Shown: piece by piece, positions 1,952 through 32,467 of the stretch | Numbering within the stretch: position 1 is the first letter of the stretch | Layout: each line of letters begins with the position of its first letter | Assembly: GCA_964508125.1 (NCBI GenBank) | Contig: CAZDTC010000001.1 | Span: 1-52,615, forward strand | Length of the DNA stretch: 52,615 nucleotides | Direction: 5' to 3' | From: an uncultured Candidatus Kuenenia sp. | Lineage (GTDB): Bacteria; Planctomycetota; Planctomycetia; Pirellulales; UBA1268 | The notes under the pieces: generated by a model | The model's database searches: none | What the model saw: the letters and a program-made list of their open reading frames with translations, nothing else | What the model was told of the DNA's origin: nothing | Position numbers and translations under genes: made by a program

Positions 1952-3478
1952 TTAGGCCGGGCTTGGGGTGGCAGTCGGCGTCGTGAACGCGCGGCGATAC
2001 GACCACCCATTGCGAAGGCGATTCTTTACGGTCGCATACTTGATCCCACTGGCCTTGGCCGCCGCTCGGATACTGTCGTACCGGAAGATCTTTCTGTCGT
2101 GGCGAAATTCAATCCTAGTCTTGTTTCGTCGGTTGCTGTCAGGCGGCGTGGTAAGTGCTCTTCTCACACTCCACCCCAGAACATCCAGTCGATAACTGAC
2201 GCAGGTCTCCGACAGCGAATACTCCTTGGCGGCTCTCCTGCGACTAGCGTAGCAATACAACTTGCCACGATAACGAAACCGCAGTGGCTTCGCCTTTGTG
2301 GTTGGAGAACCAAGATCCTGCAGGCCTGCCGCCTGCTCAGGGGTTTTGCCCATCCGAAGTCGCCGCCGGAACGTATCTGGATTGACCTCGTAGCATCTGG
2401 CGGCGGCGGACTCCGACGGGAATGTGGTTCCAGCAACCCTAATCGCTCTGCCACTTACAGCGGAGCACCCACCGCCGCCTCGTGACTTGTTAAGGCCAAC
2501 GGGAGCGAGGGTGTTTAGCAAGGCAATAAAATGCCTCTCGAACGCATCGAGCTCGTGTTGCGTGCCAGCGGTGGCGAGAACCTCGGTTCGAAATGAACCT
2601 GGTCCGTCACGTCTTATGAGGGCAGCCACCCGCGACTCCGTTCGCGTTGGCGCACGCAAGGCATCAATGCAGTGCCGAGCCCAACGCCGAGCGAAAGTCG
2701 TCACCGTTTGCCCGACGTACTTCTTGCCAGAGGGAGCATGGGTCAACAGGTACACAATCCCAAAAGATCGTTTGGTGTGCTTTGGGTGTGGCTCTAGGTC
2801 GAGAGCTTGTTCCAACGTCCAGCCCGCGTTTTGGTGACGGTCGTAGACCGTCTCATACGTCTTGTTGAAGTGCCTGCAGGCCGCCCTAAGGCTCCGAAAG
2901 TGCTGCGGTTCATCCGATGCCCGAACCGTAACAGCCCTTTTGTTTTCAGGGGGTGCAAGACCAACGGCAGCCTCCGGTGACTGACCAGACTGAATGCGAT
3001 GCCGAATGGTGTCGCCACTCATGCCGTAATGGGCGCCGACGGCACCATACCCGTGAAACGTGAGTTGTTGATCGCCGTCATGAACTGTGATCAGGGTTGA
3101 ATTATGCGTAGGAGGCCTCTTTGGAGGGTCAGTCAATCCGACCGCAGCCTCGATAGACCATCCGCGATCAACGGCCGCCCGTATCCGAGCCTCCGGGATG
3201 TTGAAATAGCGCCCCAGCCTCGCATAGCCCCGGAAGGTGCGACGGACGCCATCCACGACAAGCACGAAAGTCTTGGTGTTTGGCGGCTGAGGCCTTTCCG
3301 GAGGCGGATCTAAACTGACGGCCTGTCGGCTCGTCCATCCAAGCCGCAGACGATCTTTGATCTTTCCGCTTGGCACGTTGTATTCATTGGCAGCGGCCTG
3401 CCTGCTCTCAAAAACCCGCAACATGCCGCCATCCAATACGGAGAAAGATGTCTTCATGGGCCTAACGTCTACGCTCAC
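1952..3478 (-). CDS. GIY-YIG nuclease with seven flanking ~55-aa HTH-like (NUMOD/IENR-like) repeats
   Basis: The GIY-YIG core is at aa 239-332 (nt 2483-2764): 'FGIVYLLTHAPSGKKYVGQT', 'RRWARH', 'ELDAFERHFI', 'GLN'. Four N-terminal and three C-terminal repeats share the pattern '..G....F.S...AA.......T...R...GWS.E.A', e.g. 'IEFRHDRKIFRYDSIRAAAKASGIKYATVKNRLRNGWSYRRAFTTP'. Confidence 0.75.
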   Translation of the reverse strand: MSVDVRPMKTSFSVLDGGMLRVFESRQAAANEYNVPSGKIKDRLRLGWTSRQAVSLDPPPERPQPPNTKTFVLVVDGVRRTFRGYARLGRYFNIPEARIRAAVDRGWSIEAAVGLTDPPKRPPTHNSTLITVHDGDQQLTFHGYGAVGAHYGMSGDTIRHRIQSGQSPEAAVGLAPPENKRAVTVRASDEPQHFRSLRAACRHFNKTYETVYDRHQNAGWTLEQALDLEPHPKHTKRSFGIVYLLTHAPSGKKYVGQTVTTFARRWARHCIDALRAPTRTESRVAALIRRDGPGSFRTEVLATAGTQHELDAFERHFIALLNTLAPVGLNKSRGGGGCSAVSGRAIRVAGTTFPSESAAARCYEVNPDTFRRRLRMGKTPEQAAGLQDLGSPTTKAKPLRFRYRGKLYCYASRRRAAKEYSLSETCVSYRLDVLGWSVRRALTTPPDSNRRNKTRIEFRHDRKIFRYDSIRAAAKASGIKYATVKNRLRNGWSYRRAFTTPTATPSPA

Positions 3479-3866
3479 TTAGGTTGGCTTGTACTTGCTT
3501 TAACGCCGCCACTTCTTATCCAACTGCGGTGTACTTCCGATTCGGAAGGACCGTCACTCCGTCCAACGCCCAGGCCCACGCGGAGCGCGCCTTGAACTCA
3601 CGTACCAACAAGCCGCAACCGCAAGGATCAAGGAGACAACCAGTCCTAGGCCGAGCGAGTATGAAACCACGAAGACTGCCGTCATGGTGAAAGACGCGAT
3701 CATTGACGGACCGGACGGCCCGCGACACACGATGGCTTTTGGCATGAGTGACCGAATCTCCACAGGGAGGAACCGTCGTCGAAGTACGCCCGACTGACGA
3801 GGCCTCGCGGCCTCAGCAAACTCTGTACGCGGGGATCTGCCAGTTTGTGACCGAAACAACGGTCGC

Positions 3867-4316
3867 TCAGCGTCGGGCCCGCGCCGCTTCCCGCTGCCCC
3901 TGGACATCGAGGATCTCGGCAACCTCAAACACCGGAGGCATCGCCCCGAACCGCGGCCGCAGGCGGACGACGGGAACGAAATACCCAGCCCGTCCGTGAA
4001 TCTCGGCAATCACCAGGCAGGCGACGGGGGAGAGCGCTGGCGGCACGATCGCCAGCCTGCACGACTGCCACTGTTCCGATGTCAGTCCAGCGGCCTCGAC
4101 AAAGCCAGCCGCCTGCTCCGCGAACGGCCGGGCCAAATCGCAGTGGGTTGGAACCGCCAAGATGTGATCTACGCGCCAACCCGATAAGCGCTCACAAGCT
4201 GCCACCTGTGCTCTGGTGAGTGGATGGGCAAAATTAATGACCGTCACCTTGGGGGCTTCCCCGCCGCAACCGCGCAACGTCGGAATGTCGGCCCGGTTGA
4301 GTTCCATCTCAGCCAT
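3867..4316 (-). CDS. Small alpha/beta protein, possibly Csx15-like CRISPR-accessory family
   Basis: 'VINFAHPLTRAQV...LAIVPPALSPVACLVIAEIHGRAGYFVPVVRLRP...PPVFEVAEILDVQ' matches my recollection of Csx15-family proteins, which I cannot verify without a search. The start is set at an internal Met, because the ORF-track start at 4439 adds an Arg/Gly-rich extension. The gene is divergent from the CARF gene at 4681. Confidence 0.4.
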   Translation of the reverse strand: MAEMELNRADIPTLRGCGGEAPKVTVINFAHPLTRAQVAACERLSGWRVDHILAVPTHCDLARPFAEQAAGFVEAAGLTSEQWQSCRLAIVPPALSPVACLVIAEIHGRAGYFVPVVRLRPRFGAMPPVFEVAEILDVQGQREAARARR

Positions 4317-4680
4317 TCTCCAGCGAATCCCTGACTGCCTTTCCTCCACCAGCCTGGCGTGCCCTCCGCCGCCGCGTGCGTCGGTCTTGATGGACGCCCG
4401 AGCCAGAAAGATGCGTTGCATGGCCACGCCGGATCTCATGCGGCTTGCGACGTTTTGGCATCCTTAGGCAGTGGCGGTTCACGGCGACCATTCCAAAATC
4501 TGGTGACAGGTTGGAAATTGAGGCATCCTGTCCTTATTACGCATGGATCGACTCACACGTGACCAAACGGTCCCGGACTGCCGTTCTCATCGCATATAAA
4601 GAAGGGAATTTCCCTGACCGACGACGGGCCGTCACGTTTCGCCCAGTTCGTTCGTATCGTTTGCGAGGAATCTCCCATCC

Positions 4681-6150
4681 ATGAAAACCATCGTCTGCAC
4701 AACGGGCACCTCCATCGCCGCTGGCGTGCCAGAAGAAACTCGGAACCGCGGCGGCGAAGCATTTCGCGAAGCGATTCGCAAGCGGCTCGCTGGTCTTGCA
4801 TCTGGGCTGGCGTCTGGCGAGTTTCTCGAGCGTGCGAGCGCCGAATCCAACAGCGTCTGCCGGCTCGCTCCCGCGGCAGGCGACCGCGTGGTTCTGCTCT
4901 GCTCTGAAACCGATGAGGGGACGATCTGCGCGGAGGAGGTACAGCGTCTTCTGGCCAATCATCTTCACGTCGCCGCCGAGTGCCGGCGCATCGAGGGCCT
5001 GCAGGCTTCGGACGCAACACGCTTCCGCCGCGTCGGCGTGCAGAACCTGTTCGGAGAGCTCGATCGCCACTGCGGATCATCACGATCTGGCGGTGGCGAC
5101 TCCGTGTTTCTTAATGTAACCGGCGGCTTCAAGTCGGCCGTCCCTTACGTGACGCTTTACGGCCTTCTTCACCAGGTCCCCGTGGTATACATCTTCGAGC
5201 GAAGCGACCGGCTATTCACGCTTCCCCAGGCCCCGGTGCGATTCGACTACGATCGCCTCGCTCCGGCCGCTGAAGCGATCTTCACGCTCTACCGTGAGAC
5301 GGACATGCCCAAGGAGGAGTTCTTCAAGCGGATTTCAGGGCTTCCGTTCCACGAGCGGGCGATCTATGAACCGCTGCTCGACGAAGAAAACGGCCGCGTC
5401 ATGCTCTCCGCCTTCGGCTTGCTCCTCCACGAAGCACTGCAGCGGGATCGCGGCAACGTCTTCCTCTCCCCGAGTGCTGCCAAGGCATTCGAGGACGCCA
5501 CGGGCGACGCCCGCGACCAGCTCGCGTTCATGCTCGACCGGGTCGGTGACCCGCTGATGCGACGAGCGAAACGCCACTCATTCCACGGCACCGATCTCGA
5601 GGTCTACAAGCCGGGCAACACAGCACAGCGAATGGCCTACTTCATGCGCGGTGACGACGTGCACGTCTGCGAGCTCTATCCGACACACGACGAGGGCTAC
5701 GAGAAGATGTTGGCTACAAGGCGAGTCGCTGACTACGAAACCGCCCGGTTCGTGCCTTGGTCGCGGCCTGCGGAGTTGCCGCCCAGCCCATCGACCGACG
5801 AGCAATGGGCGAACGAGCAGGCCCGAAAGTTCTCGCGGCTACAGGACCGCTGTACGATGCTTGAGCGCCGGGCCGCAGAAGCCGAAGAGCAGGCCTTGCG
5901 CCTCGTTGAACTTGAGGACGAGATCGCCGCAGCCCGCGCCGAGGCTGCTTCAACGGAGGCGAGGTTTGCGGCAACCGATGCGGAACGGCTTACCCTCGCC
6001 GCGCAGGTCGAGCAGGGCCGTGCACGCGAGCAATCGCTCCGCGACGAGGCGATGTCGGCAATCGCGTCGGCAGACCGCGTTCGACGCTTTGCCTCGGAGG
6101 CCGGCTGGCTTGGGCGTCTACGGTTCCTGCTCAGCGGAAAGATGACATGA
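4681..6150 (+). CDS. CARF domain - RelE/ParE-like toxin domain - coiled-coil fusion protein
   Basis: The N-terminus 'MKTIVCTTGTSI', 'SAESNS' and 'FLNVTGGFKSAVPY' are hallmark CARF (APE2256/Csm6-type) motifs (aa 1-250). Residues 258-345 (nt 5452-5715), 'VFLSPSAAKAFEDATGDARDQLAFMLDRVGDP...LEVYKPGNTAQRMAYFMRGDDVHVCELYPTHDEGY', follow the RelE/ParE pattern. Residues 375-465 are heptad-rich and Ala/Glu/Arg-rich (coiled coil). An SD-like 'gaggaa' lies upstream. The stop overlaps the next ATG (ATGA at 6147-6150). Confidence 0.75.
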   Translation: MKTIVCTTGTSIAAGVPEETRNRGGEAFREAIRKRLAGLASGLASGEFLERASAESNSVCRLAPAAGDRVVLLCSETDEGTICAEEVQRLLANHLHVAAECRRIEGLQASDATRFRRVGVQNLFGELDRHCGSSRSGGGDSVFLNVTGGFKSAVPYVTLYGLLHQVPVVYIFERSDRLFTLPQAPVRFDYDRLAPAAEAIFTLYRETDMPKEEFFKRISGLPFHERAIYEPLLDEENGRVMLSAFGLLLHEALQRDRGNVFLSPSAAKAFEDATGDARDQLAFMLDRVGDPLMRRAKRHSFHGTDLEVYKPGNTAQRMAYFMRGDDVHVCELYPTHDEGYEKMLATRRVADYETARFVPWSRPAELPPSPSTDEQWANEQARKFSRLQDRCTMLERRAAEAEEQALRLVELEDEIAAARAEAASTEARFAATDAERLTLAAQVEQGRAREQSLRDEAMSAIASADRVRRFASEAGWLGRLRFLLSGKMT

Positions 6151-7001
6151 GCGAGAGGTCTCGCGTGATCCGCCGACGCAGAATGCCGGGGGTGGATTTC
6201 CATTCCTCCGGTGGGATATACCGAATCCACTTTTCGGAGAATCCGAAGATCGACGCCGCAACAGGATTGCGAATGAGTTTCGACTCGGAAGAAACCATCG
6301 AGTCTCGCATCGCCCGCTGGTTGGAGACCGGCGAGGGACAAGACGACGTTTTTCGAGCCGTCACCAAATTGATCGAGGCACGGCGCAGGTACTTTTCCGA
6401 ACTCTACGGCGAGCGAGTCACGACGGAAGCACTGGACGACGCTCCCGGGCGGGTGTTTCTAAAGATCCGGGCGGGCCGTTTCACCGCAGGAAGACCTTTT
6501 CGTCCATGGCTGAAGATCGTTCTAAGGAACCGGATTTTTGACATCCTGCGGCAGGAGGAGCGGCGAGCAGAGAAGTTTCCGATACATGACAAAGCCGAAA
6601 CCGTACGTGACGACGCCGATATCGACCGAACGATCAATGTCGCACAAGACGCTTTGCAGGCAGACCTGCTCGTTCGCGTGGTCGCCGAGCTCGAACGTCT
6701 TCTCAAGCCCGACAACCGACTCATTTTTGCCGTCGCTTCCGGACTTGCTGAGCACCTTGATCGGCCGGTGCTCGATCGTTGGTGTGCCGCCTGCAACTGC
6801 GGGCTGCCACTTCGCGAGGTCGTCGATGAGTTGCTGGAACTTCCAATCCACGGTCGGCTGAGCAGACTTGCCACTGCGTTTGGCCTCAAGCCGAATACCT
6901 GCATCAAACGTTTCCATCGGGCTGCGGAGGACCTTGCGAAATCTCCGCTCTTGAAGGACCTTCGGAATATTCTGGACGGAGCAGTCCCACCAGGCGCCTG
7001 A
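6147..7001 (+). CDS. ECF-type sigma-70 family factor (with ~65-aa N-terminal extension and insert in region 4)
   Basis: Region 2-like 'EALDDAPGRVFLKIRAGRFTAGRPFRPWLKIVLRNRIFDILRQEERR' aligns by eye to RpoE '[38 protein letters not shown]'. Region 4 HTH-like 'LSRLATAFGLKPNTCIKRFHRAAEDLAK' is also present. The gene is translationally coupled to the upstream CARF-RelE gene. Confidence 0.65.
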   Translation: MSERSRVIRRRRMPGVDFHSSGGIYRIHFSENPKIDAATGLRMSFDSEETIESRIARWLETGEGQDDVFRAVTKLIEARRRYFSELYGERVTTEALDDAPGRVFLKIRAGRFTAGRPFRPWLKIVLRNRIFDILRQEERRAEKFPIHDKAETVRDDADIDRTINVAQDALQADLLVRVVAELERLLKPDNRLIFAVASGLAEHLDRPVLDRWCAACNCGLPLREVVDELLELPIHGRLSRLATAFGLKPNTCIKRFHRAAEDLAKSPLLKDLRNILDGAVPPGA

Positions 7002-7095
7002 ACGAGGCCAGGCAGAACGCCTGTCACGAATCCACAGACTCCCGCGTAAACGAGCTAGATGGGTAACACGACGGAGTCACTTGCGAGACACTGCG

Positions 7096-8112
7096 ATGCA
7101 CGACGACACTTCCCTCATTCAGACACTGGCCCGACTCGGCCAGGCTGCGGCCGCTGACGCCGCGGCGGCCCGCGGCGTGCTTGCTGACCTGGGAAGGCGG
7201 GCCGCGTCTGGTGCGGAACCCCTCCACGTTGCCGCCGGCGCGGTGCCCGCCCTCCTTCAGGCGGGCCGCGTGATCGCGTCGGAAATCGCTCACGAAACCA
7301 AGCAGTTGTCGTCTCTCGACGACCGCTGGCATGCGGCGACATCGCAGGCCGAGGCCGACGCCATAGCGTCCGCCCCGCTCGCCGCGCGTCTGGAGGCAGG
7401 CTTCGCGCTTGAGGGCGTCGAGTCGCTGATCGAGACCACCGCCGGTGAAACCGGCCCGATCAAGGACGTGGCGCGCAACCTGGCCTCGGCCATTGTGGCC
7501 TACGATGCGTCGCTGCGTCGCAACCTCGACTGCCTCTGCACGCTTGCCGACGGCGATTCACTAATTGCGTGGCGGCGATCACTACCGCCGGGCATGGATT
7601 TTCCGTGGTGGCTCGACGGTACGCTCGAAGCACGGGCTTGTGCAAATGACAAGCATTCGGCGGCCCTTGCCGCGCGGCTTGCGAGTGCGTTTGCCGGACA
7701 ATCTGTCGCTGCCGCGCCCCGACTGGCAGCCTCGACAGTCGCGGCAGCGGCGATCGGCACTGCGGCAGGTTATTCCCTCGCGGCCGCGATACCGCCGGCT
7801 GCCGGCATCACGACGCACATCTGGCGTCATCCTTCGCGGCCCTTCGAGGCGGTGCTGTGGGTGCCGGCCAGGTTCGCCGACGACGCCGACCTGAGGATGG
7901 TGTTCCAGGCGACCGGCCCGGGGTTCGCGCCCCGCGATCTCGTGGGCGAGGTCGTGATGCTCGGCGGACTGCCTGCGGTCGTCCGGGAGGATGGCGAGGG
8001 TCCGGCCGCTCGCGTGGAAGCGACGTGGCCGGCGCACGCCGTGGCCGACTCCATCCGCAACACGGTCGCGTTGACAGACGGCCGCGGCGACAACTGGATT
8101 CCGGCGGAGTGA
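7096..8112 (+). CDS. Hypothetical Ala-rich protein (~338 aa); positional candidate for anti-sigma / protease substrate
   Basis: Long ORF in the operon between the sigma-factor gene and the Lon/CARF/palm gene, with no recognisable motif. The ATG at 7096 is preferred over the TTG at 7081. The functional label is inferred only from position. Confidence 0.5.
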   Translation: MHDDTSLIQTLARLGQAAAADAAAARGVLADLGRRAASGAEPLHVAAGAVPALLQAGRVIASEIAHETKQLSSLDDRWHAATSQAEADAIASAPLAARLEAGFALEGVESLIETTAGETGPIKDVARNLASAIVAYDASLRRNLDCLCTLADGDSLIAWRRSLPPGMDFPWWLDGTLEARACANDKHSAALAARLASAFAGQSVAAAPRLAASTVAAAAIGTAAGYSLAAAIPPAAGITTHIWRHPSRPFEAVLWVPARFADDADLRMVFQATGPGFAPRDLVGEVVMLGGLPAVVREDGEGPAARVEATWPAHAVADSIRNTVALTDGRGDNWIPAE

Positions 8113-8125
8113 CCCTTCCGCCTCA

Positions 8126-11100
8126 GTGGCCGTCCCGCCGGGGCCCGCAACGATGTTTGTACCCTCCCGCGACACACTCGATACATCCTGTCGCGACGAT
8201 GCATCGGCTGACCCGCAGCGTGCTGTACGGCTGGTCAGCGACATGGGCCCTCTCGGGCGGCTCTGGCTGCGGCCCGATGTTCTCGCGTTGGCGGAGCGAT
8301 TTGCCGGCGGTGCGTCGCTGCCGCGGGCTCCACTGGGTACTGGCGGGTTTCACGCCCTGCTTCTGACACCGGGCCGCGGCCGCTATGCAGCGCTCCGCCC
8401 AGCGTTCGCCCTGCCGCTTCGGTGGGTGGCCGGCGACACCCATTCCCCTCATCTTCCGCCGGGACTCACCGACTTCGCCACAACGCTGCTCGCCGAACAT
8501 GAGATCGAGTTCGGCATCGCCCCTCCTCCCACGGGCCATTGGACGCTGCAACTCGGCGGCTTTCTCGAGGGGCGGTGCGACTTCTCGCAGTTCGACTTCG
8601 GATGCGAGTGGGATTCGGCGACAGCGTCGCTGCTCGGCGGATTGCTGCTCGCGGTGATCGGGGCACCACCCGATGAGCAGGTGATGGCGTCAATCGCCTG
8701 GGGCCCGGGCGGTCTTGGCCGGGTGGAGGGCATTGCCGACAAACTCGACGCTGCCCGCGACGCGGATGCCCGACTCGCATTCCTCGCCGCCGCCGATCGC
8801 GAAGACGCAGCCCGCTGGCACGTCGCCAATCCTGACGCTCCGCTGCGAACCATCGTGCTCGAGTCCCGACCCACGCTTCGTGAGTCGCTGGCTCCCTTCC
8901 TCCAGGCGATCGAGGCCCGGCCCAGCGCCGATGCCCCCCTCCCGGAGCTGCAGCGGTTCTACGAAAAGCGGCTCTTGGGGGCCGATTTCGCCGAGCACCG
9001 TCGCAGCTTTTACCTCGACGTAGTCGTCGATCGTATCGCCGCCGACTATCGGGGCCCACTTCCGCCCGCCGATCCGTGCCGCAACCTGATCGGCGTGGTC
9101 GGCCCGGGCGCGGCTCCGCCGCTGGCGTTCCTCGCCCGCGTGCTGGCCCCGCGCCGGGTGCTGCTCCTGCACGACGCGCAGGCCGCCAGGCACGCCGAGG
9201 CGCTCGAGGCCCACCTCACAGGCGTCCGCGGCGTCGCCGTGACATCGCACGAGTTCAAGACGCTCTTCGGCCCGCTCGACGAGTTGCGACCGGAGGTTGA
9301 GCGGGCGATTGCCGCATTTCTTGGTGACGACCCGGTCGACGACGGCTTCGTGGACACGGTGATCGACCTCACTGGCGGAACCCGGCGGCTGCCCTTCGTC
9401 CTGCTCGACATCGCGCCCGCGCGAGCCGCTTGCGTGCACATCGATGCCGAACGCGTGAGCGGTCAGATCGAGAGAATCGGCACGGAGAAGATCGTCACGA
9501 TCGACGTCCCGAGGGCGGGGCGATTGGCGTCGAAACTTCTTGCCGCGCTGTCCCAGGGTTCCGTGTCGGTGCCGGTATGGCACCTCGCGCCACTTGACCG
9601 ATGGCACCTGCTGCGTGACACGTGCCTTGGCCACGCCCCCGTCCGCGGCGGCATGCGCACTCGTGATCTGCCGCTTGACCCCGAGGCTCGCGAACTGGTG
9701 CAGACAGCCGCCCGTGTCCAGTCGAGCGAATACGAAGTGGGCGGCAAGGTGAAATGTCGTTTCGGAGATTGGCTTTACCTGTTCGCGGTTCTCGTCGAGC
9801 CGGCGTTGGCGAAATCACCCGATGCGGCCCACGCGGCGATCCGCGAATGCATGCTGGAGCTGCGGCAGGCTCTCGGACTCAGTGAGCTCCGGGATTTCGC
9901 CAACAAGTGCCCGTTTCACCACCGTCTGCTTGGCATCCTCGGCCTGAGCCGGCAGGAGTGGCAGCGACTCGCGTCTGAGGGCACTTCTTTTGAGCGGGAA
10001 CGACTGGTCGCGAGGCTCGGCGCCCGTGTCTGCGCTGCATTCCGTAGCCCCGAGCCCCCACACCTTTCACCGGAAGATCCGGATGTGCTCTCCTGGGCCG
10101 TACGTGCGATTGGGGCCAAGGATCGTGACCGAGAACTTCTCCAGGATCTCGCTGACGCAAAGCGGGTTCTGGTGACGATCAAGCCGAAGGATATCCAGCC
10201 GTACATGCATCGCGCGAAGATGCATTGGATGATGAGGGGGGCGAGCGTCTGGTGTGCGCAGTCGCTGGGCTTCGCCCGCGACCACATCCTCGAAAAGCAA
10301 GGCGGACTGCTACTCAGCGACCTTGATGCCCTCGTGGCATTCGTGTTTCCCGAAAATGCTCCCGTGGTGAAAGACATGCTTCAGGGTGTCGCGGCCGCGT
10401 GGGCGAACCCTGCATCCTTCAAAACCAAATTCCCACGTCTTGCCGCTTACCACCCAGCCAACGAACAACACCGCCACCACGGCATCGACCCCATTCAGTC
10501 GCTGCCGCTCCTATCTGCGTGGCGATATCCAACGACGTCGCTTCTCGATCTCTGCGTTGCACGCGGTTCGCGCGCCCCTGAAATGCGTGGTGAAATTCCA
10601 CGACCTCTGCCGCGCGACGCCGCCACAGCCGCAGGCGACGTTCCATGCTCCTTCGTCGAGCGGGAAAACGCCTATGTTTCACAATCACCCACGTGGCTGA
10701 CTGACCGCAGCGACCGACAACGGGAGAATTATGGTTGGTCGGCGCTCTGCTGGTCGCTCGCTGGGACAACCCTGCGGACCCACTGGCATCACGGCGTGTG
10801 CGCAGCACTGAACCGTGACGACTACCCGATGATGGCGGTCAGCCACGGCGGCTGGCTCGAGCATCTCAAGATGAAGACCGAGCGGCTAACTTTTGTGAAA
10901 CTGGATGGAGACGGTGTTGGAGAGCGTTTTCTCAATGAATCATTTCCAAGTCGCCCACTTCTCGGCCTGAAACTCGGCCGGCTTGTTCAGGAGCGGGTCT
11001 TGGCGGCCACACGGCGCGTGCTCGAGGTTCACGACGCGGCGAAACGCCCAAAGTATCTCCCCGTCGACCTGGTTTACTTCGGCGGCGATGATATTTTCTT

Positions 11101-11491
11101 CTGCCTACCAGGCTGCTACCTCGAGCCATTTCTGCAGGGCTTCGGCCAATCGTTCGATGGGAGCGAACTCGCTCCATGGAAGTCCACGCGTTTCAGCGCT
11201 CTATCTGTCACCCTGCCGCCGGGGTCGGACTTCAAGGACAACGGCCGACTGTCGCAGTCGGAGGAATTCGCCCGCGCGAACCTGGCAGCTGCAAAGACGC
11301 TCGCTCCCGGCCTGCGGGACCTCGTCAAGCGAGGGCACCCTGATGACGCCACTCTCGCCAAGCTGAACAATTCAGTCGCGCCCCTGGGCTATCGCTGCGA
11401 GTGGGGCGGGACCCATGCAGACACCGGCATCGTCCACGGCGTCAGCCTCAGGCTCGTCCGGCTTACCCGCGACCCCGCGATTTCCGGCTGA
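8126..11491 (+). CDS. Multidomain protein: Lon-like (S16) Ser/Lys protease motif + CARF-like Rossmann domain + helical region + C-terminal GGDD palm (mCpol/Cas10-like cyclase) domain
   Basis: Lon-like: 'EWDSATASLLGGLLLAVIGAPPDEQVMASIAWGPGGLGRVEGIADKLDAA' parallels the Lon 'GDSAS...AL.G.P....VA.TG.....G.V..VGG...K..AA' pattern (Ser164 at nt 8615-8617, Lys206 at 8741-8743). CARF-like: 'RRVLLLHD...VIDLTGGTRRLPFVLL' (TGGT at nt 9371-9382). Palm: 'LTFVKLDGDGVGERF' (nt 10904-10915) and 'VDLVYFGGDDIFFCLPG' (GGDD at nt 11081-11092), as in Cas10 / minimal CRISPR polymerase. No HD domain was seen. Confidence 0.6.
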   Translation: MAVPPGPATMFVPSRDTLDTSCRDDASADPQRAVRLVSDMGPLGRLWLRPDVLALAERFAGGASLPRAPLGTGGFHALLLTPGRGRYAALRPAFALPLRWVAGDTHSPHLPPGLTDFATTLLAEHEIEFGIAPPPTGHWTLQLGGFLEGRCDFSQFDFGCEWDSATASLLGGLLLAVIGAPPDEQVMASIAWGPGGLGRVEGIADKLDAARDADARLAFLAAADREDAARWHVANPDAPLRTIVLESRPTLRESLAPFLQAIEARPSADAPLPELQRFYEKRLLGADFAEHRRSFYLDVVVDRIAADYRGPLPPADPCRNLIGVVGPGAAPPLAFLARVLAPRRVLLLHDAQAARHAEALEAHLTGVRGVAVTSHEFKTLFGPLDELRPEVERAIAAFLGDDPVDDGFVDTVIDLTGGTRRLPFVLLDIAPARAACVHIDAERVSGQIERIGTEKIVTIDVPRAGRLASKLLAALSQGSVSVPVWHLAPLDRWHLLRDTCLGHAPVRGGMRTRDLPLDPEARELVQTAARVQSSEYEVGGKVKCRFGDWLYLFAVLVEPALAKSPDAAHAAIRECMLELRQALGLSELRDFANKCPFHHRLLGILGLSRQEWQRLASEGTSFERERLVARLGARVCAAFRSPEPPHLSPEDPDVLSWAVRAIGAKDRDRELLQDLADAKRVLVTIKPKDIQPYMHRAKMHWMMRGASVWCAQSLGFARDHILEKQGGLLLSDLDALVAFVFPENAPVVKDMLQGVAAAWANPASFKTKFPRLAAYHPANEQHRHHGIDPIQSLPLLSAWRYPTTSLLDLCVARGSRAPEMRGEIPRPLPRDAATAAGDVPCSFVERENAYVSQSPTWLTDRSDRQRENYGWSALCWSLAGTTLRTHWHHGVCAALNRDDYPMMAVSHGGWLEHLKMKTERLTFVKLDGDGVGERFLNESFPSRPLLGLKLGRLVQERVLAATRRVLEVHDAAKRPKYLPVDLVYFGGDDIFFCLPGCYLEPFLQGFGQSFDGSELAPWKSTRFSALSVTLPPGSDFKDNGRLSQSEEFARANLAAAKTLAPGLRDLVKRGHPDDATLAKLNNSVAPLGYRCEWGGTHADTGIVHGVSLRLVRLTRDPAISG

Positions 11492-11584
11492 AATCGCGCT
11501 TTTTTCCCGTCGGTCACGCTTCGCGGCCCCCGAGCGTACTTCCCGTGTCGACCGATATTCGCTCCGACACGATAGGAACCCGCC

Positions 11585-12562
11585 ATGAACAACCGCACTC
11601 TCGCCCTGCTCGTCGCCGCCATCCTCGCAGTGGTCACCATTTTCGGCCTTCAGTCGCAGCAGAGCGCCGTCGTGGTTCGCCCCGTCCCTGCCGATGTGGC
11701 CGCCGGCACCTATGACCGCATCCACCTGAGCGTAGCCGCCGCGACGGCGCGAAACGAGCAGGCTGCCCGACTCTGCGAGAGCGAGATCAACATGATCCTT
11801 GCCCGCGAGTTTCCCGAGATCGAGCGCCGCGGGAACAAGGTCGCCGAGGAGGTCGCAAGCTATGGCTCCTGCTGCACGATCATCTACCGCCTGGCCAAGG
11901 AGAAGCTCGGTTGGTCTTCGAGCACGGCCGACTACGTCGAGGGCGAGATCCGCGGTCGCCTGCAGCCGGCCCTCGACACGTGCGGCCGCGAACTCGACAC
12001 GGCCCTCGACCGCTGTGAACTCGCCCTCAGGGAGAGCACGGTGATGCTGGCGACTGAGCTTGCCCAGATGAGTCCGTCTCGGGCTGACCAGTCGATGAAC
12101 ATCGCCGTGGACGTCCGCACCGGCGGTGACCTTGACCAAGCCCTTCGCAATCTTGGCCTCAGCGGCGGCATTCTCACGGTGAGCGGCGCCTTCGACGTGG
12201 TCGCCATCATGAACACCACCGTCTTCCGCACCATGATCCGCACGATCGTGGAGTTGGCTGCATCCCTGTTCGCCACGCCTGCCGCCACTGCTGCTGGCTC
12301 GGCGGCCGTGGCGGCCGCTGACGGCCCTCTGCCGGTGGGCGACGTCATCGCGGTGCTGGGTGGAGCCTGGACGGCCTACGACATCTACGCAACCCGACGT
12401 GAGTTCGAGCGGGAAATCAAGGCTTCACTCTCGAACGCCCTGCCGGAGATGAAGCGAACCGTCCACCACCAGCTCATGGAGCGACTCCACTCGCTCCAGT
12501 CCGAGTACCAGCGGGCTCAAGACCGGATCCGCAACGAGATGGCCTTGAACCTCACCCGATAG
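11585..12562 (+). CDS. Membrane protein, family A (paralog of 44665..45696)
   Basis: N-terminal TM segment 'LALLVAAILAVVTIFGL', then a helical domain, then C-terminal hydrophobic segments with the conserved 'DGPLPVGDVIAVLGGAWTAYD'. An SD-like 'aggaa' precedes the ATG. Clear similarity by eye to the 44665 ORF. Confidence 0.65.
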   Translation: MNNRTLALLVAAILAVVTIFGLQSQQSAVVVRPVPADVAAGTYDRIHLSVAAATARNEQAARLCESEINMILAREFPEIERRGNKVAEEVASYGSCCTIIYRLAKEKLGWSSSTADYVEGEIRGRLQPALDTCGRELDTALDRCELALRESTVMLATELAQMSPSRADQSMNIAVDVRTGGDLDQALRNLGLSGGILTVSGAFDVVAIMNTTVFRTMIRTIVELAASLFATPAATAAGSAAVAAADGPLPVGDVIAVLGGAWTAYDIYATRREFEREIKASLSNALPEMKRTVHHQLMERLHSLQSEYQRAQDRIRNEMALNLTR

Positions 12563-12572
12563 GAGCCCTTCC

Positions 12573-13484
12573 ATGACCACCTTCAGCCGCCGCCTTGTCC
12601 TCGCGTCGCTTCCCCTGCCGGTGGCGTTTGCCGTCGCCACGTCCGGCGTCGCCTTCGCCGTGCCGGGCGTGGGAACGCTCGTGCGCGAGACCGTGGAAAT
12701 GGCCGTCAAGAAGAGCGGCCGTGAGGTCGTCGAGCGTGCTTCTCGGGAAGTGGCCGAGCAGGCCATCGAGAAGGGTGTGGCGAAGTACGGGCCTCGGGCG
12801 GCCCAGGCCGTCGTCGACGGCGGCATGGAGCTCGTTGAGGCATCCGCGAAGTACGGCGACGACGTCATGCGGGTGGCTGTTGAGGCGACACCAGCGGCAC
12901 GCCGGGCGCTCGCGCTCGAACCGGGCCGGATGCTGCCCCTCGTCCGCGAACTCGGCCAGGAGGCCGTCGAGCTCGAGGCCAAGGCGCCGGGCCTCGCCCA
13001 AAGGGTGTTCACCACCTTTGGCGACGACGGCGCGCGGCAGATCGCCCGAACGGTTCCGGCAGAAGACGTGCCGCGGCTGCTTTCCCACGCCGAGCGGGCC
13101 GAATCTCCGGCTGTGCGTCGCGCACTCCTCGACGCTTACAAGAAGGAGGGGCCCGCGATGTTTGCGAAAATCACGCCCAAAATAGTTGTTGCCATCGGGG
13201 CGAGCGGCGCCCTCGTGTACGGCACTCACCGGATGACCGGTCCGTTCGCTGCCTTGGCCCACTGGATGCGCATCAATCCTGATGCGGCCCGTGACATGCT
13301 TCGGGGGCTTCTTTGGATCATGGGCACGGTCGCCGTCCTGACGACGGTCTTTGTACTGGGATCCTTTCGCCTCACCCCGTGGCACGCTCGACGGCCAGCA
13401 GATCACTGGAAGGCAACAGGCTCAGATCCTACGGGGACTGCAGCGGGGGACCGACGCACCGCTATCGACGGCGTGTCCGGTTGA
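12573..13484 (+). CDS. Membrane protein, family B (paralog of 45708..46628)
   Basis: Signal/TM 'LVLASLPLPVAFAVATSGVAFA', a helical Ala/Glu/Arg-rich domain and two C-terminal TM segments. SD 'aggag' lies 8 nt upstream, directly after the stop of the previous gene. Similar along its length to the 45708 ORF. Confidence 0.65.
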   Translation: MTTFSRRLVLASLPLPVAFAVATSGVAFAVPGVGTLVRETVEMAVKKSGREVVERASREVAEQAIEKGVAKYGPRAAQAVVDGGMELVEASAKYGDDVMRVAVEATPAARRALALEPGRMLPLVRELGQEAVELEAKAPGLAQRVFTTFGDDGARQIARTVPAEDVPRLLSHAERAESPAVRRALLDAYKKEGPAMFAKITPKIVVAIGASGALVYGTHRMTGPFAALAHWMRINPDAARDMLRGLLWIMGTVAVLTTVFVLGSFRLTPWHARRPADHWKATGSDPTGTAAGDRRTAIDGVSG

Positions 13485-18584: not shown

Positions 18585-18586
18585 GC

Positions 18587-22468: not shown

Positions 22469-22488
22469 GCTTCTTTTCCTCTGGCCGC

Positions 22489-25308: not shown

Positions 25309-25713
25309 GCTTGAGGGAACGGAGCAGCCGGGTTCGAGTACGGAGGGGCTGCCGTGGCCAAAAAAGAATACCTCTTCGGAAGGGTGTCCCCAAGCGTCTG
25401 GGCCACGCCGCTACGTGCCAACAGGTCCGGTTGTGAGGATGGTACGCGTCACACCGTCGGAATGTGACACCACCCGCCTGCCATCGAACGGCACCGGGAT
25501 TCTCGCAGTCGCGGACCCCCTAGACGACTACGGCCTGAAAGGACGCCCGTGCTCATCCACCAAAATGCGACTCCCTCCGCCGCACATCGCACAGACGCTC
25601 TTGCCTTCTCCTCCGCAAGTGCGGCAACCCTCCTTGCCCTGCGGTATGGCAGCCAGGCCTGCACATCAAGCACCGCACACCGCTCAAGCCGACATATCCG
25701 CATCTGGCCGGGA

Positions 25714-27622: not shown

Positions 27623-28414
27623 ATGCATACGTTGGAAAACTTGGAAATTCACGTCGCGCATGGCTGCAACCTCACCTGCGAGAGCTGTTCCCATTTTTCC
27701 AATCACGGCCATAAGGGCATCGTGTCCCTTCGAGAGGCGGCCGGTTGGATGGGGGCTTGGAAGCATCGGCTCAGTCCATCGACATTCTCGCTTCTGGGCG
27801 GCGAACCAACGATCCATCATCAATTGCCTCAGTTTGTACTTCTCGCACGTGACCATTGGCCTCATGCGCGCCTGAGGCTGGTGACTAACGGCTTCTTCTT
27901 GCACCGTCACCCACACCTGCCTGCGGTCCTCAAGGCAACCGCCACGTTTTTATGCCTGTCGATCCACCACGATACACCGGAGTACCGCAGCAAGATCGCG
28001 CCGATTAGGCAACTTCTCTCCCATTGGCAGAGCACATACGGCATTCCGATTGAATATTTTGAGTCACACAAGTACTGGACGCGGCGGTATCACGGTTTTG
28101 GCGCCGAAATGCAACCTTATGAGGACCAGCAACCCCGGCGGAGTTGGGAGCAGTGTCGTGCCAGATACTGCCGTCAACTGTTCGACGGCAGACTCTGGAA
28201 ATGCAGTCCGCTCGCGTATCTACGCTTGCAAGGCGCGAAATACGAACTTTCCAAGGCATGGAGTCCGTATCTCGAATACCAGCCTCTGGAGCCAACCTGC
28301 ACGGATGAGGAACTACGAGCGTTCCTGAGCCGCGAAGAGGAGGACGTTTGCAACATGTGCCCCGCCTCCCCCGAGCGTTTTGACTTGCCGAATCCACTCC
28401 CGGGCATTAGTTAA
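27623..28414 (+). CDS. Radical SAM enzyme with Cys-rich C-terminal (SPASM/twitch-like) region
   Basis: CX3CX2C 'GCNLTCESCSH' is at nt 27665-27688. 'LLGGEPT' is the SAM-binding GGE motif. Additional Cys residues lie in 'CRARYCRQL...KCSP' and 'CNMCP'. The gene is divergent from the kinase/GT pair. Confidence 0.8.
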   Translation: MHTLENLEIHVAHGCNLTCESCSHFSNHGHKGIVSLREAAGWMGAWKHRLSPSTFSLLGGEPTIHHQLPQFVLLARDHWPHARLRLVTNGFFLHRHPHLPAVLKATATFLCLSIHHDTPEYRSKIAPIRQLLSHWQSTYGIPIEYFESHKYWTRRYHGFGAEMQPYEDQQPRRSWEQCRARYCRQLFDGRLWKCSPLAYLRLQGAKYELSKAWSPYLEYQPLEPTCTDEELRAFLSREEEDVCNMCPASPERFDLPNPLPGIS

Positions 28415-28579
28415 GGGCCACCGCGCCGGGCTGACAAGAGCGAGGCGATGGGGGATATCGGTCTCCTAAGTCGGGAGAGCCGCAAAGCTTTCCGTCACAA
28501 CTGCTGCACGCCTCTCGTATTCGTTTCAGCGGCTCGGCGGACACCGCGCCAGCAGGAAGCAACCCTGGGAGACTGGAAA

Positions 28580-28786: not shown

Positions 28787-28946
28787 TCGCCGACGCGACC
28801 AACTGAAGGGTCCGCGCCGTGCGACGGACCAACGTTGTCCCAGCGACTGCGTAGGCTGGCGGACTTCCCTCCGCCCCCATACTCTGGAGGGGCTTCCTCC
28901 CGTACACAAGCCCCTTGCGGCGGCCCGCACGCAGGCGTTGCCCACA

Positions 28947-32467
<3,521 letters not shown>

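Follow-up and report, generated by a model that had tools for sequence, protein, structure and literature searches.

The divergent sigma factor of the ECF type described here, together with the 338-residue protein encoded next to it (p338), is in our moderately confident reading the output pair of a three-part switch in which a Lon-CARF protease that senses cyclic oligoadenylate acts on a cleavable inhibitor of the sigma factor. p338 is probably that inhibitor, cut by the signal-activated protease to free the sigma factor. The genes lie in a stretch of 52,615 nucleotides from an uncultured Candidatus Kuenenia sp. (the window; Table 1). The earlier note on this DNA had delimited the two open reading frames (ORFs) correctly, and the sequence strings that it quoted are present.

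Table 1. Positions of the module, its putative control sites and its neighbours in the window
Feature	Position (nt)	Strand	Remarks
csx15	3867..4439	-	NCBIfam CAS_Csx15 1.9e-38; PADLOC 7.2e-30; conserved divergent neighbour of module (synteny)
GTCAC-N17-CGTA site	4538..4563	-	Divergent, directed at csx15; arrangement common to L001-L006
GTCAC-N17-CGTA site	4631..4656	+	24 nt upstream of cami1-like/sigma operon; blocks invariant in cross-locus alignment
Cami1-like CARF-RelE effector gene	4681..6150	+	PADLOC CARF7--CARF_RelE 3.4e-50; Pfam Cas_APE2256 1.8e-24
Predicted divergent ECF-type sigma factor gene	6147..7001	+	284 aa; 242 aa if start is Met43 (nt 6273)
Conserved N-terminal leader of sigma factor	6147..6272	+	Residues 1-42; motif RRRxxPGVDFHSSGGIYR; predicted disordered
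Predicted sigma-2 domain	6297..6575	+	Residues 51-143; F-x-P-W-L...N...D..R signature at nt 6498-6554
Family-specific insert between region 4.1 and region 4.2 HTH	6741..6854	+	~35-40 aa; gap in alignment with SigJ
Region 4.2-like helix-turn-helix (HTH)	6855..6938	+	Residues 237-264; weak collinear alignments to SigL, SigW, SigJ, CnrH, SigE, RpoE
GTCAC-N17-CGTA site	7023..7048	+	47 nt upstream of p338 start codon; position occupied in L001-L008, L010
p338, candidate anti-sigma factor and Lon-CARF substrate	7096..8112	+	338 aa, 34.8 kDa, 23.7% Ala
Most conserved p338 family motif, P-W-W-L-D-G-T-L-E	7603..7629	+	Residues 170-178
L228-A229-A230-A231 of p338	7777..7788	+	Disordered linker, pLDDT <50
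p338 C-terminal beta-rich domain	7807..8109	+	Residues 238-338; ~11.5 kDa including remaining linker
Lon-CARF protease part of 1121-aa ORF	8153..9523	+	PADLOC CARF_m2--CARF_LON 6.1e-53
Catalytic Ser of Lon-CARF part	8615-8617	+
Catalytic Lys of Lon-CARF part	8741-8743	+
CARF sensor of Lon-CARF part	~9113-9505	+
Cas10-palm-like part	9536..11491	+	In-frame fusion to Lon-CARF; PADLOC Cas10 3.7e-6; Pfam Cas10-Cmr2_palm2 0.047
Terminator-like hairpin with T run	11476..11498	+	End of 1121-aa ORF
GTCAC-N17-CGTA site	11513..11538	+	46 nt upstream of p325; also before p325 homologues in L006, L007, L009, L010
p325 and p303	11585..13484	+	Two predicted membrane or secreted proteins; weak LeoBC match 0.0015 (PADLOC)
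GTCAC-N17-CGTA site	25443..25468	-	134 nt upstream of 939-aa gene heading minus-strand defence operon
GTCAC-N17-CGTA site	43334-43359	-
GTCAC-N17-CGTA site	43407-43432	+
GTCAC-N17-CGTA site	44595-44620	+
GTCAC-N17-CGTA site	45627-45652	+
GTCAC-N17-CGTA site	46691-46716	+

The sigma factor and p338

From its sequence, the first ORF encodes a real, conserved and divergent ECF-type sigma factor, whose family is set apart from other sigma factors. Taken alone, the ORF stays below the thresholds of Pfam Sigma70_r2 (E=0.0076, 16.5 bits against a cut-off of 24) and of NCBIfam sigma70-ECF (1.4e-5, 24.8 bits against 42.9). At the family level the predicted sigma-2 domain is significant: Sigma70_r2 was matched by 11/11 family members (best 4.2e-6), and a profile built from 15 family sequences matched solved ECF sigma factors at values from 2.8e-7 to 8e-4 (SigW 2.8e-7, SigJ 5.8e-6, CnrH 2e-5, SigE 3e-5), with sigma factors making up all of its top 19 matches and most of these being named ECF. 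The domain contains the region 2 string FRPWLKIVLRNRIFDILRQ (nt 6498-6554). Region 4, called as clear as region 2 in the earlier note, is fainter. Pfam r4 matched neither the ORF nor its 10 close relatives, and Sigma70_r4_2 gave weak matches at the equivalent position in more distant family members (E 0.0025-0.05). The string LATAFGLKPNTCIKRFHRAAEDL (nt 6867-6935) belongs to a putative sigma-4 domain that is detected weakly and collinearly, at scores that never reach a curated threshold for region 4.

Two additions to the canonical architecture had been proposed, and both are present with altered dimensions. The N-terminal extension measures about 42 to 47 residues rather than about 65. Its conservation (42-57% identity) holds at the protein level even where gene callers choose Met43, and in L001 and L008 it can be read in frame ahead of the called starts; AlphaFold2 predicts it to be disordered (pLDDT ~30). 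The insert in region 4, put at about 30 residues, spans 35 to 40 and includes RWCAACNCGL (nt 6777-6806). C213 is invariant only within the close family, and W212 throughout the wider one; C216 and C218 are not conserved in the family alignments, so that the insert has no conserved Cys cluster. The AlphaFold2 model consists of two bundles of helices with a disordered linker between them (residues 144-164), and has additional short helices at residues 200-229 in the area of the insert.

The second ORF encodes p338, a real, conserved protein of an unannotated family of ~214 clusters. As the earlier note had it, no recognizable motif is present: searches of Pfam, NCBIfam, PADLOC and PDB matched no family. 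Foldseek with the p338 model returned nothing significant, the best hits being 14-3-3-like helices at E >= 0.04. A longer version starting at TTG 7081 was rejected as unsupported, the homologues being 335-339 aa long. In the AlphaFold2 prediction a helical N-domain is connected to a small C-domain of beta structure by a disordered linker of low confidence. Among 125 family members, eight of the nine positions of P-W-W-L-D-G-T-L-E are 82-99% conserved, T176 falling below 70%; residues 173-181 have a pLDDT <50 in the monomer model, and the motif is a candidate for partner binding. In the same 125 sequences W243, P246 and W334 are conserved in the C-terminal domain (pLDDT 83-89, eight strands), a candidate docking domain for the protease.

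The linker between these domains is variable, with one conserved island in which A229 and A230 are kept in 86% and 87% of the 125 members, 11-16 residues ahead of W243 and followed by variable polar residues. The tetrapeptide L228-A229-A230-A231 is a candidate site of protease cleavage and degron formation. A cut at the [L/A]-A-A motif would by computation yield fragments of 23.3 and 11.5 kDa with ...YSLAA as the new end. Since p338 is Ala-rich, conservation of the Ala pair could be partly compositional. Shuffled linkers, a control that used linker composition only, argue against such an origin, with [LAMVI]AA occurring 8-24 residues upstream of W243 in 81% of family members against 20% of the shuffled sequences.

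An unlikely alternative is that p338 is a Lon-CARF substrate and not an anti-sigma factor; its cleavage would free a toxic or regulatory fragment, and the sigma factor would be controlled through removal of its leader or by a protein of ~270 aa encoded in related loci. Leader removal is the pro-sigma mechanism of Bacillus pro-sigmaE and pro-sigmaK. In the module's sigma factor the conserved, disordered leader of 42 residues is compatible with it, and the small-residue stretch right ahead of Met43 (IDAATG; AAA or AAAT in relatives) resembles the p338 motif, but the evidence for this leader motif is ~7 sequences, some of which lack it. p338 has no similarity to known anti-sigma domains and matches no known anti-sigma fold, which speaks for this alternative; conversely, no toxin-like domain was detected in it in our searches. 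The ~270-aa protein is encoded between the sigma gene and the p338 homologue in L012-L016, where it could be the real anti-sigma factor. However, its gene is absent from the clade of the window, which leaves p338 as the only uncharacterized partner adjoining the sigma gene there.

Gene order and the Lon-CARF protease

Gene order (sigma, p338, Lon protease) is maintained at 25-30% identity across Planctomycetota and in one Cyanobium metagenome-assembled genome (MAG). The three genes are contiguous in L001-L007 and in the Cyanobium locus (L009); in L008 and L010 sigma adjoins p338 and the contigs stop short of the protease. In L012-L015 the extra gene precedes the p338-like gene and Lon-CARF, and L016 has the same order with a Lon-type ORF of another architecture. 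The module adjoins cas6 or other cas genes in L001-L003, L013 and L015, and type III cas genes are often nearby.

In the window p338 lies directly before the Lon-like gene, as had been noted, ending 40 nt ahead of the latter's real start, ATG 8153. The Lon-CARF part matches Lon protease across the Ser-Lys dyad (profile 6.9e-5), and the two residues, 42 positions apart, are invariant in 8 homologues of 26-69% identity. Its C-terminal half aligns on the CARF domain of Card1 (profile 8.8e-4). The Lon-like gene is fused in the window to a Cas10-palm-like protein, which the earlier note had missed; this part, with GGDD at nt 11081-11092, is a separate gene of 668-705 aa in L004, L005 and L009. No CRISPR array or RAMP gene was found in the window, a second point that the earlier note had overlooked.

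Upstream, the operon opens with the cami1-like gene, whose stop codon and the sigma start codon overlap in ATGA. Downstream, p325 and p303, in which hydrophobic N- and C-terminal segments can be read, accompany the Cas10-like version of the module (synteny in L006, L007, L009 and L010) and are candidate sigma-induced effectors.

A promoter-like motif that travels with the module

The earlier note had proposed a transcriptional response branch and a search of the island for ECF-type -35/-10 motifs. An unbiased scan is in line with this: of ~2.4 million bipartite patterns, the one most over-represented in the window was the ECF-type GTCAC-N17-CGTA, which has 14 sites where 0.29 (Poisson 3e-19) or, from a shuffle control, 0.12 (maximum 1) would be expected. 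For eight of the 14 sites a gene on the same strand begins 24-99 nt downstream; these genes include p338, csx15 and the first of the sigma operon, and the site before the sigma operon implies that the operon is autoregulated. In the cluster at 43334-46716, four of the five sites precede the ATG of an island gene by 43-55 nt. The sites at 3826, 17341 and 28658 have no obvious target gene nearby. Promoters of the sigma-70 type showed no excess in the module.

The motif accompanies the module across loci. In L008-L010, which are independent loci, it likewise headed the list of patterns, with 10 sites where 0.19 would be expected, and in L009 two sites lie ~45 nt upstream of gene starts. CRISPR-linked relatives carry one promoter-like site before cas2-cas1 and another at the 5' end of cas10. 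In a divergent sigma clade GTTAC-N17-CGTA occupies the equivalent places, a count inflated by shared ancestry because five of the six sites lie within a coding region at positions orthologous to one another.

The assignment of GTCAC-N17-CGTA to the module's sigma factor is made from sequence, and Planctomycetes encode many ECF sigma factors. The motif could accordingly be the site of another factor, such as a host ECF sigma or a repressor, with the module's sigma factor having different targets, but several observations make this quite improbable. The motif is found alongside the module in the Cyanobium MAG and in planctomycete MAGs as well; it is directional and promoter-like with a fixed spacer; in the clade with a different sigma recognition helix, its -35 element is changed at one base; and sigma is the sole DNA-binding protein conserved in the module (Pfam, PADLOC, NCBIfam, synteny).

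Phages and conjugative elements carry sigma factors of their own, and large serine recombinases bound the window, which terminates at a tRNA fragment. The module's sigma factor might likewise be a general regulator of an integrative element, unwired to the protease, with p338 an unrelated accessory and the gene order a product of co-transfer only; the sites at 25 kb, 28 kb and 43-47 kb in the window, well away from the module, would fit. We nevertheless consider this very unlikely, as sigma, p338 and Lon-CARF occur together in unrelated surroundings, including recombinase-free type III CRISPR loci and another phylum, and as the motif moves with the module.

The proposed switch and its known counterparts

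In the switch that we favor, we infer the nature of the nucleotide and each physical step, from binding and cleavage to degron formation and promoter recognition. At rest, the sigma factor would be held by the helical N-terminal part of p338, whose C-terminal beta domain would dock on the protease. Binding of the nucleotide by the CARF domain would activate the Ser-Lys Lon domain, which would cleave p338 in its disordered linker at the conserved [L/A]-A-A. The 23-kDa N-fragment, ending in ...LAA, would present an SsrA-like C-degron and be cleared by housekeeping proteases. The released sigma factor would then steer RNA polymerase to GTCAC-N17-CGTA promoters, with positive feedback through the site before its own cami1-like/sigma operon and re-setting through the site before p338 and the protease. 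Further outputs would include csx15, the two membrane proteins and several other gene groups of the island.

The closest functional counterpart is CalpL-CalpT-CalpS, a type III CRISPR SAVED-Lon protease, anti-sigma factor and ECF-like sigma factor (Rouillon et al. 2023; bioRxiv 10.1101/2024.05.08.593097). CalpT is cut in LAAA into fragments of 24.3 and 10.9 kDa, which exposes an LAA degron (bioRxiv 10.1101/2024.05.08.593097), and its P1 residue is a conserved Ala (bioRxiv 10.1101/2021.12.06.471393). p338 likewise has an Ala-rich motif in a flexible linker, with predicted fragments of ~23-24 and 10-11 kDa, the larger of which would end in a new C-terminus of LAA type; the Cami1-like CARF-RelE effector co-occurs, and relatives of the module carry type III cas genes. 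In contrast, the module's protease has a CARF sensor (Card1-like, PADLOC CARF_m2) in place of SAVED4 and is fused in the window to the Cas10-palm-like protein, with no CRISPR locus, and its sigma factor has the conserved leader and the insert of 35-40 aa in sigma-4. A PDB profile search with Lon-CARF returned no CalpL chain. Homology of p338 to CalpT was rejected, as it has no MazF-like domain and no DUF2080 and its N-domain is all-helical. The earlier suggestion of CalpS/CalpT-like partners thus holds for function, on several independent but indirect lines (promoter motif, gene order and Ala-Ala linker motif), and fails for homology, given also that the sigma factor is isolated. The module is best read as a non-homologous functional analogue of CalpL-CalpT-CalpS.

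Other systems share parts of this logic. In Craspase (type III-E: Cas7-11, Csx29 TPR-CHAT, Csx30, CASP-sigma RpoE-like), a protease cut in the partner's linker frees an ECF-type sigma factor as an immune output, as proposed for the module. Csx30 binds sigma through a helical N-terminal part, which is followed by a smaller C-terminal one, an arrangement like that predicted for p338. Its protease, however, is a caspase-like CHAT enzyme activated by target RNA binding, whereas the module has a predicted nucleotide-activated Lon; NCBIfam CAS_III-E_sigma matched the sigma ORF weakly, far below threshold (E 0.0013, 18.7 bits against 100), and the window encodes no Cas7-11, Csx29 or Csx31. As in RseA/sigmaE (DegS, RseP, then ClpXP via a VAA degron), the anti-sigma cut would expose an Ala-Ala C-degron for bulk proteases to finish, and sigma would autoregulate an operon that includes its own inhibitor. 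The two have no sequence similarity, and RseA is a membrane protein that senses envelope stress, whereas the parts of the module are predicted to be cytoplasmic and triggered by a CARF-bound nucleotide. Finally, a Cas10-palm-like cyclase without a CRISPR effector complex, beside CARF effectors, recalls mCpol/Panoptes-type signalling (PMC12657218, PMC13577387), but the Cas10-like part here is ~650 aa long, matches no mCpol model and is fused to or adjoins a Lon-CARF protease with a sigma output. Promoters of the sigma factor likely precede at least 10 gene groups of this anti-virus island, which would make its target genes directly testable.

Gene order of the module and its surroundings

The sigma-like ORF noted in the window codes for a 284-residue protein and lies in a plus-strand gene row, between the gene for a 489-residue CARF-RelE protein, which is of the Cami1 type as described in PMC11229360, and that for p338, the 338-residue protein that the earlier note had proposed as an anti-sigma factor and protease substrate. 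Coordinates are collected in the table. The stop codon of the CARF-RelE gene and the start codon of the sigma gene share bases (ATGA), and the two genes are thus probably translationally coupled. Homologues of p338 are 335-339 residues long, and their N termini coincide with the Met at nt 7096, which rules out the alternative TTG start at nt 7081. Two genes for predicted membrane or secreted proteins, p325 and p303, lie beyond a terminator-like hairpin; they have their own GTCAC-N17-CGTA promoter-like site and are candidate induced effectors. They also accompany the version of the module with a Cas10-like protein in L006, L007, L009 and L010. A search of the window revealed neither a CRISPR array nor a RAMP gene.

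A genome scan with the p338 family identified nine further loci, all in metagenome-assembled genomes: eight from Planctomycetota (Kuenenia, Thermogutta, Thermoguttaceae, Pirellulales and others) and one from Cyanobium. The sigma gene is upstream of the p338 homologue in 8/8 loci, and a Lon-type gene directly follows that homologue in all six loci with enough sequence. In three relatives (L001-L003) the order csx15, CARF-RelE, sigma, p338 and Lon-CARF protease continues into cas6, cas2, cas1, cas10 and RAMP genes, and in L004 and L005 the module is followed by a Cas10-like gene and a radical-SAM gene. L006 and L007 have the same Lon-CARF/Cas10-like fusion as the window. cas6 directly follows the Lon-CARF gene in L013, L015 and L001-L003, and L014 begins with a CRISPR-like repeat array with a period of ~75 nt. 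In the distant loci L012-L016, a gene of ~270 codons whose product has no family match separates the sigma gene from the p338 homologue; it could code for an additional or alternative anti-sigma component.

Large serine recombinase genes are found at both ends of the window, together with a tRNA fragment cut by the window end, and the whole has the appearance of an integrative defence island with a tRNA gene as its insertion site. The called GTG start (nt 49903) of the second recombinase ORF lies within a 28-nt tandem repeat (2.1 copies). Between the two ends are a minus-strand defence-type operon and a plus-strand cluster that looks like a restriction-modification-like defence system, the latter followed by two CsgG-domain proteins. 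Near the left end, a 508-aa ORF has several internal repeats of ~50 residues and a GIY-YIG-like core (weak Pfam match of its L006 homologue), with a GTCAC-N17-CGTA site ~350 nt upstream.

Features of the module, of its island and of related loci (window coordinates unless a locus is named)
Feature	Coordinates	Strand	Remarks
csx15, divergent	3867-4439		NCBIfam 1.9e-38
CARF-RelE protein, 489 aa	4681-6150	+	PADLOC CARF7--CARF_RelE 3.4e-50; Pfam Cas_APE2256 1.8e-24
Sigma-like ORF	6147-7001	+
Sigma leader just before Met43	6240-6272	+	residues ~32-42
p338	7096-8112	+
1121-aa ORF	8126-11491	+	Lon-CARF and Cas10-palm-like parts
Terminator-like hairpin	11476-11498		between p338/protease unit and p325 promoter
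p325, p303	11585-12562, 12573-13484	+	predicted membrane/secreted; p325: weak LeoBC match, 0.0015
GTCAC-N17-CGTA sites outside the cOA module	3826-3851, 25443-25468, 28658-28683, 43334-43359	-
GTCAC-N17-CGTA sites outside the cOA module	17341-17366, 28494-28519, 43407-43432, 44595-44620, 45627-45652, 46691-46716	+
508-aa ORF	1952-3478	-
Defence-type operon	13573-25308	-	539-aa protein with MkoB-like N terminus (2.1e-5); 1164-aa AAA_11/AAA_12 helicase; 1324-aa DUF2357 protein; 939-aa protein without match
Radical-SAM gene	27623-28414	+
Radical-SAM gene, L004	L004:14990-15874
Radical-SAM gene, L009	L009:5333-6220	-
Cluster	28746-38475	+	SNF2/NOV_C helicase, DUF1156 methyltransferase-like and DUF499 genes
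Two CsgG-domain proteins	38488-42021		after DUF499-containing cluster
Large serine recombinase genes	12-1769, 49903-52596	+
28-nt tandem repeat	49888-49946
tRNA fragment	52562-52615	-	cut by window end
Gene of ~270 codons	L012:6218-7006; L013:6015-6845; L014:4907-5728		equivalents in L015, L016
Distant module copies in CRISPR loci	L014:80-470; L013:10185-11153; L015:6405-7388; L002:7119-14594

The sigma factor, p338 and the Lon-CARF protease

The sigma-like ORF had been read as carrying sigma-70 regions 2 and 4. Searched alone, it gave sub-threshold matches (Pfam Sigma70_r2, E=0.0076; NCBIfam sigma70-ECF, 24.8 bits versus a cut-off of 42.9), whereas all 11 members of its family matched Sigma70_r2, the best at 4.2e-6. 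A family profile of 15 sequences, which included distant homologues from the genome loci, retrieved SigW (2.8e-7), SigJ (5.8e-6), CnrH (2.1e-5), SigE (3e-5) and SigL (8e-4) from the PDB, and its top 19 matches were sigma factors throughout. Region 2 is thus supported at the level of the family. The alignments to ECF sigma factors cover both parts of the protein and leave no extra domains (no region 1.1 or region 3), which is the ECF two-domain layout. Only 10 relatives were found among 5.8 billion proteins at 90% clustering, and a further search, with the sigma profile as query, added none to these 10, which makes this family sharply isolated.

Region 4 gave weak matches. Pfam r4 and r4_2 did not match the ORF or its 10 close relatives, but distant homologues gave weak, collinear Sigma70_r4_2 matches (E 0.0025-0.05), and the helix LSRLATAFGLKPNTCIKRFHRAAEDLA is collinear with region 4.2 in every ECF sigma alignment, with region 4 below threshold throughout. 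The second matched stretch of the sigma profile aligns on region 4 of SigJ. An hhalign comparison of the family with one RpoE sequence covered the region 4.2 helix only, at a probability of 1.6%, and serves only as a hint of collinearity. The AlphaFold2 model (mean pLDDT 69.6) consists of two helical bundles (residues 51-143 and 165-276) with a disordered linker (144-164) between them, and its helix pattern is compatible with a sigma-4 domain. A whole-chain Foldseek search with this model yielded no significant match; sigma factors cluster on top, at E >= 0.3. When the sigma factor, p338 or the 1121-aa ORF was searched against the PDB as a single sequence, no informative match was obtained; only family profiles worked.

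Two further features mark the family. A leader of ~42 residues (RRRxxPGVDFHSSGGIYR), predicted to be disordered, is conserved at the protein level even 5′ of the called starts. Just before Met43 it contains a small-residue stretch, IDAATG, with AAA or AAAT in relatives; in these few sequences the stretch resembles the Ala-Ala motif of p338 and could be a second protease site for pro-sigma processing. An insert of 35-40 residues between regions 4.1 and 4.2 carries an invariant Trp. The Cys residues that had been highlighted in this insert are not conserved, except C213 in the close family, and a Cys/zinc site was ruled out by the variability of C216 and C218.

p338 and its close relatives have no family match in Pfam, NCBIfam, PADLOC or PDB. 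An exhaustive profile search (E up to 0.001) extended the family to 214 clusters, mostly of 340-390 residues, and Pfam scans of 51 members gave no consistent match. Neither PemK/MazF nor DUF2080 was detected in 15 close and 36 diverse members at E values up to 1. The AlphaFold2 model (mean pLDDT 77.4) has an all-helical N-domain (1-160), a low-confidence stretch (160-232) and a confident beta-rich C-domain (238-338). With the whole chain, Foldseek returned nothing significant (14-3-3-like helices, E >= 0.04), and no MazF structure is among the matches listed for it.

Conservation across 125 family members is high at PWWLDGTLE (residues 170-178; 8/9 positions at 82-99%) and at W243 (94%). A229 (86%) and A230 (87%) form an island within an otherwise variable linker. 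Independently of the alignment, an [LAMVI]AA motif occurs 8-24 residues before W243 in 81% of the members, versus 20% when each linker is shuffled; its distance to W243 peaks at 11-16 residues, and the residue that follows it is variable, mostly D, E, G, P, S or T. A predicted cut after A230 would yield computed fragments of 23.3 and 11.5 kDa, the N-terminal one ending in ...YSLAA. In silico, p338 thus resembles CalpT, with its conserved P1 alanine in an Ala-rich flexible linker and its fragments of ~23 and 10 kDa.

The 1121-aa ORF downstream is an in-frame fusion. Its residues 10-466 match a stand-alone 457-residue protein of related loci at 67-69% identity and the PADLOC model CARF_m2--CARF_LON at 6.1e-53. 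Two residues spaced by 42 positions, Ser164 and Lys206 in the numbering of the ORF, are invariant in eight Lon-CARF homologues with 26-69% identity, and in a family profile they align on the catalytic dyad of Lon proteases (6.9e-5). The C-terminal half aligns on the CARF domain of Card1 (8.8e-4) with the same profile. The sensor models that matched were CARF_m2--CARF_LON, Csx1, CARF4 and CARF8 in PADLOC and the Card1 CARF in the profile search; no SAVED model or CalpL chain was among the matches, arguing that the enzyme is Lon-CARF rather than Lon-SAVED. A 2022 review listed CARF-Lon as a predicted effector only and speculated on a promiscuous-protease role (PMC9704534).

Residues 471-1121 correspond to a separate gene for 668-705 residues in L004, L005 and L009. 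They contain VKLDGDG and LVYFGGDD motifs and resemble, weakly, Cas10/Cmr2 palm domains alone (PADLOC 3.7e-6; PDB E 0.7-1.9, 6/6 matches being Cas10/Cmr2). This part may be a CRISPR-independent source of nucleotide. In L004 and L005 the Lon-CARF protease and the ~650-residue Cas10-palm-like (GGDD) protein are unfused, with a 95-aa ORF between them, and the Cas10-like part is absent from the CRISPR-linked L001-L003.

A bipartite promoter-like motif in the module and the island

The earlier note had called for a search of the island for ECF-type -35/-10 motifs. When the sequences 5′ of the CARF-RelE gene were aligned across loci, invariant blocks became visible immediately ahead of the start codon. 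A first pattern, TCACGTT-N9-13-TCGTA, proved too narrow, with one site, and was superseded by an unbiased scan of the window with all patterns made of a 5-mer, a gap of 12-20 and a 4-mer (~2.4 million tested). The top outlier was GTCAC-N17-CGTA, with 14 sites versus 0.29 expected (Poisson 3e-19); shuffling gave an expectation of 0.12 and a maximum of 1. Its layout, with a -35 element, a 17-nt spacer and a CGT-type -10 element, is that of an ECF-type promoter. The module is not enriched in sigma-70-type promoters.

Eight of the 14 sites are located 24-99 nt upstream of a gene start on the same strand: those of csx15, the CARF-RelE/sigma operon (24 nt), p338 (47 nt), p325 (46 nt), a GTPase gene, a 343-aa gene, a 306-aa gene and a 93-aa ORF. 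The putative bipartite ECF-type promoter thus precedes the operon of the sigma factor itself. Three of the six others fall within 0-230 nt of the starts of the 939-aa gene, the SNF2 helicase gene and a 395-aa ORF, the called start of the last being ahead of the site; the remaining three have no clear target gene. The sites outside the cyclic-oligoadenylate (cOA) module suggest an island-wide regulon. They front GTPase, NAAA-beta-like, 343-, 306-, 93- and 939-aa and SNF2 helicase genes.

The motif occurs at the same places in L001-L008. L002 has additional copies, one 40 nt ahead of cas2 and one at the 5′ end of cas10, and L004 has one before the radical-SAM gene. In the independent loci L008-L010 it was again the top pattern (10 sites versus 0.19 expected, p 1e-14), and in the Cyanobium locus (L009) a radical-SAM gene and a gene for a membrane protein each have one of the sites ~45 nt upstream. 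Genes of the radical-SAM type are recurrent neighbours of the module; those of L004 and L009 have the motif directly 5′, and the product of the L009 gene begins with a viperin-like CxxxCxxC. The radical-SAM gene of the window has no exact GTCAC-N17-CGTA site upstream.

A divergent clade of sigma factors with a different recognition helix is found in L011-L016. Ranking by raw counts was swamped by GC-rich words in the distant loci, and we therefore used an expectation-corrected scan. The leading CGTA-containing pattern was GTTAC-N17-CGTA, located 47-60 nt before the first gene of the operon and upstream of the p338 homologue. As five of the six sites occupy orthologous positions, this covariation of -35 element and sigma factor is no more than suggestive. 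No other DNA-binding protein than the sigma factor is conserved in the module, which makes it the most economical reader of the sites; we infer that it reads GTCAC-N17-CGTA.

Comparison with known systems and a proposed mechanism

The release of a sigma factor by a protease has recently been recognised as one output of type III CRISPR immunity, as in CalpLTS and Craspase. To our knowledge, the genes that these sigma factors switch on are still not settled. By analogy, the locus would work like CalpL-CalpT-CalpS, Craspase/Csx30/CASP-sigma and RseA/sigmaE. As in CalpL, the protease has a Lon domain with a Ser-Lys dyad, but it carries CARF and lacks SAVED4. The type III-E CASP-sigma model CAS_III-E_sigma scores 18.7 bits against the sigma ORF, for a cut-off of 100, and the window has no Cas7-11 or Csx29 gene. 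The PDB searches brought up no chain named CalpS.

In CCaCalpT the cut falls within 202-LAAA, between A204 and A205, and gives fragments of 24.3 and 10.9 kDa, the exposed LAA acting as a degron (bioRxiv 10.1101/2024.05.08.593097). The P1 alanine is conserved in SsCalpT, and MazF/PemK and DUF2080 are the defining domains of CalpT (bioRxiv 10.1101/2021.12.06.471393). In contrast, p338 has neither a MazF-like N-domain nor a DUF2080 C-domain, although its beta-rich C-domain is of similar size. The CalpT-like identity first suggested for p338 therefore holds for the Ala-Ala linker motif and the fragment sizes, but not for the domains. As the predicted cut site, fragment sizes and LAA end are alike and the domains are not homologous, architecture and motif converge on CalpT. 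The locus thus lacks the defining parts of CalpL (no SAVED) and of CalpT (no MazF, no DUF2080). We regard it as a third, independently assembled version, in which CARF replaces SAVED as the sensor and a non-homologous candidate substrate has converged on the Ala-Ala linker motif and the fragment sizes.

The anatomy of the module and the published CalpLTS mechanism lead us to the following scheme as the most likely one. The N-terminal part of p338 would hold the sigma factor, and its C-domain would dock on Lon-CARF. Binding of cyclic oligoadenylate by the CARF domain would activate the protease to cut p338 at the Ala-Ala motif, the LAA-ended fragment would be degraded, and the freed sigma factor would drive the GTCAC-N17-CGTA promoters. 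This would raise the levels of the sigma factor itself (feed-forward) and of p338 and the protease (re-set), and would also switch on csx15, the genes for the membrane proteins p325 and p303, and further genes of the island. In CRISPR-linked relatives the signal would presumably come from the type III complex, and in the window maybe from the fused Cas10-palm-like domain. The nucleotide might be activating, or restraining as in Panoptes.

A more far-reaching possibility, which we consider doubtful, is that in the CRISPR-less module the fused Cas10-palm-like cyclase makes or senses cyclic oligoadenylate, leading to destruction of p338 by the protease, and that the freed sigma factor is the master switch of a 50-kb mobile defence island through at least 10 GTCAC-N17-CGTA promoters, acting also on cas adaptation and interference genes in CRISPR-linked relatives.

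The explicit and statistically strong set of candidate promoters makes the regulon question directly testable, and the CARF-Lon family gains a specific candidate substrate, p338, and a candidate output, the sigma factor. The form that lacks CRISPR and is fused to a Cas10-palm part suggests re-use of the switch on mobile islands, as a defence regulator in its own right. What the locus adds to the known systems is convergent substrate design, a candidate regulon, a candidate substrate and output for CARF-Lon, and, on an island flanked by recombinase genes, a CRISPR-less form with a fused putative cyclase. If the master-switch reading is true, it would represent an inducible, nucleotide-gated "immune regulon" on a mobile element.
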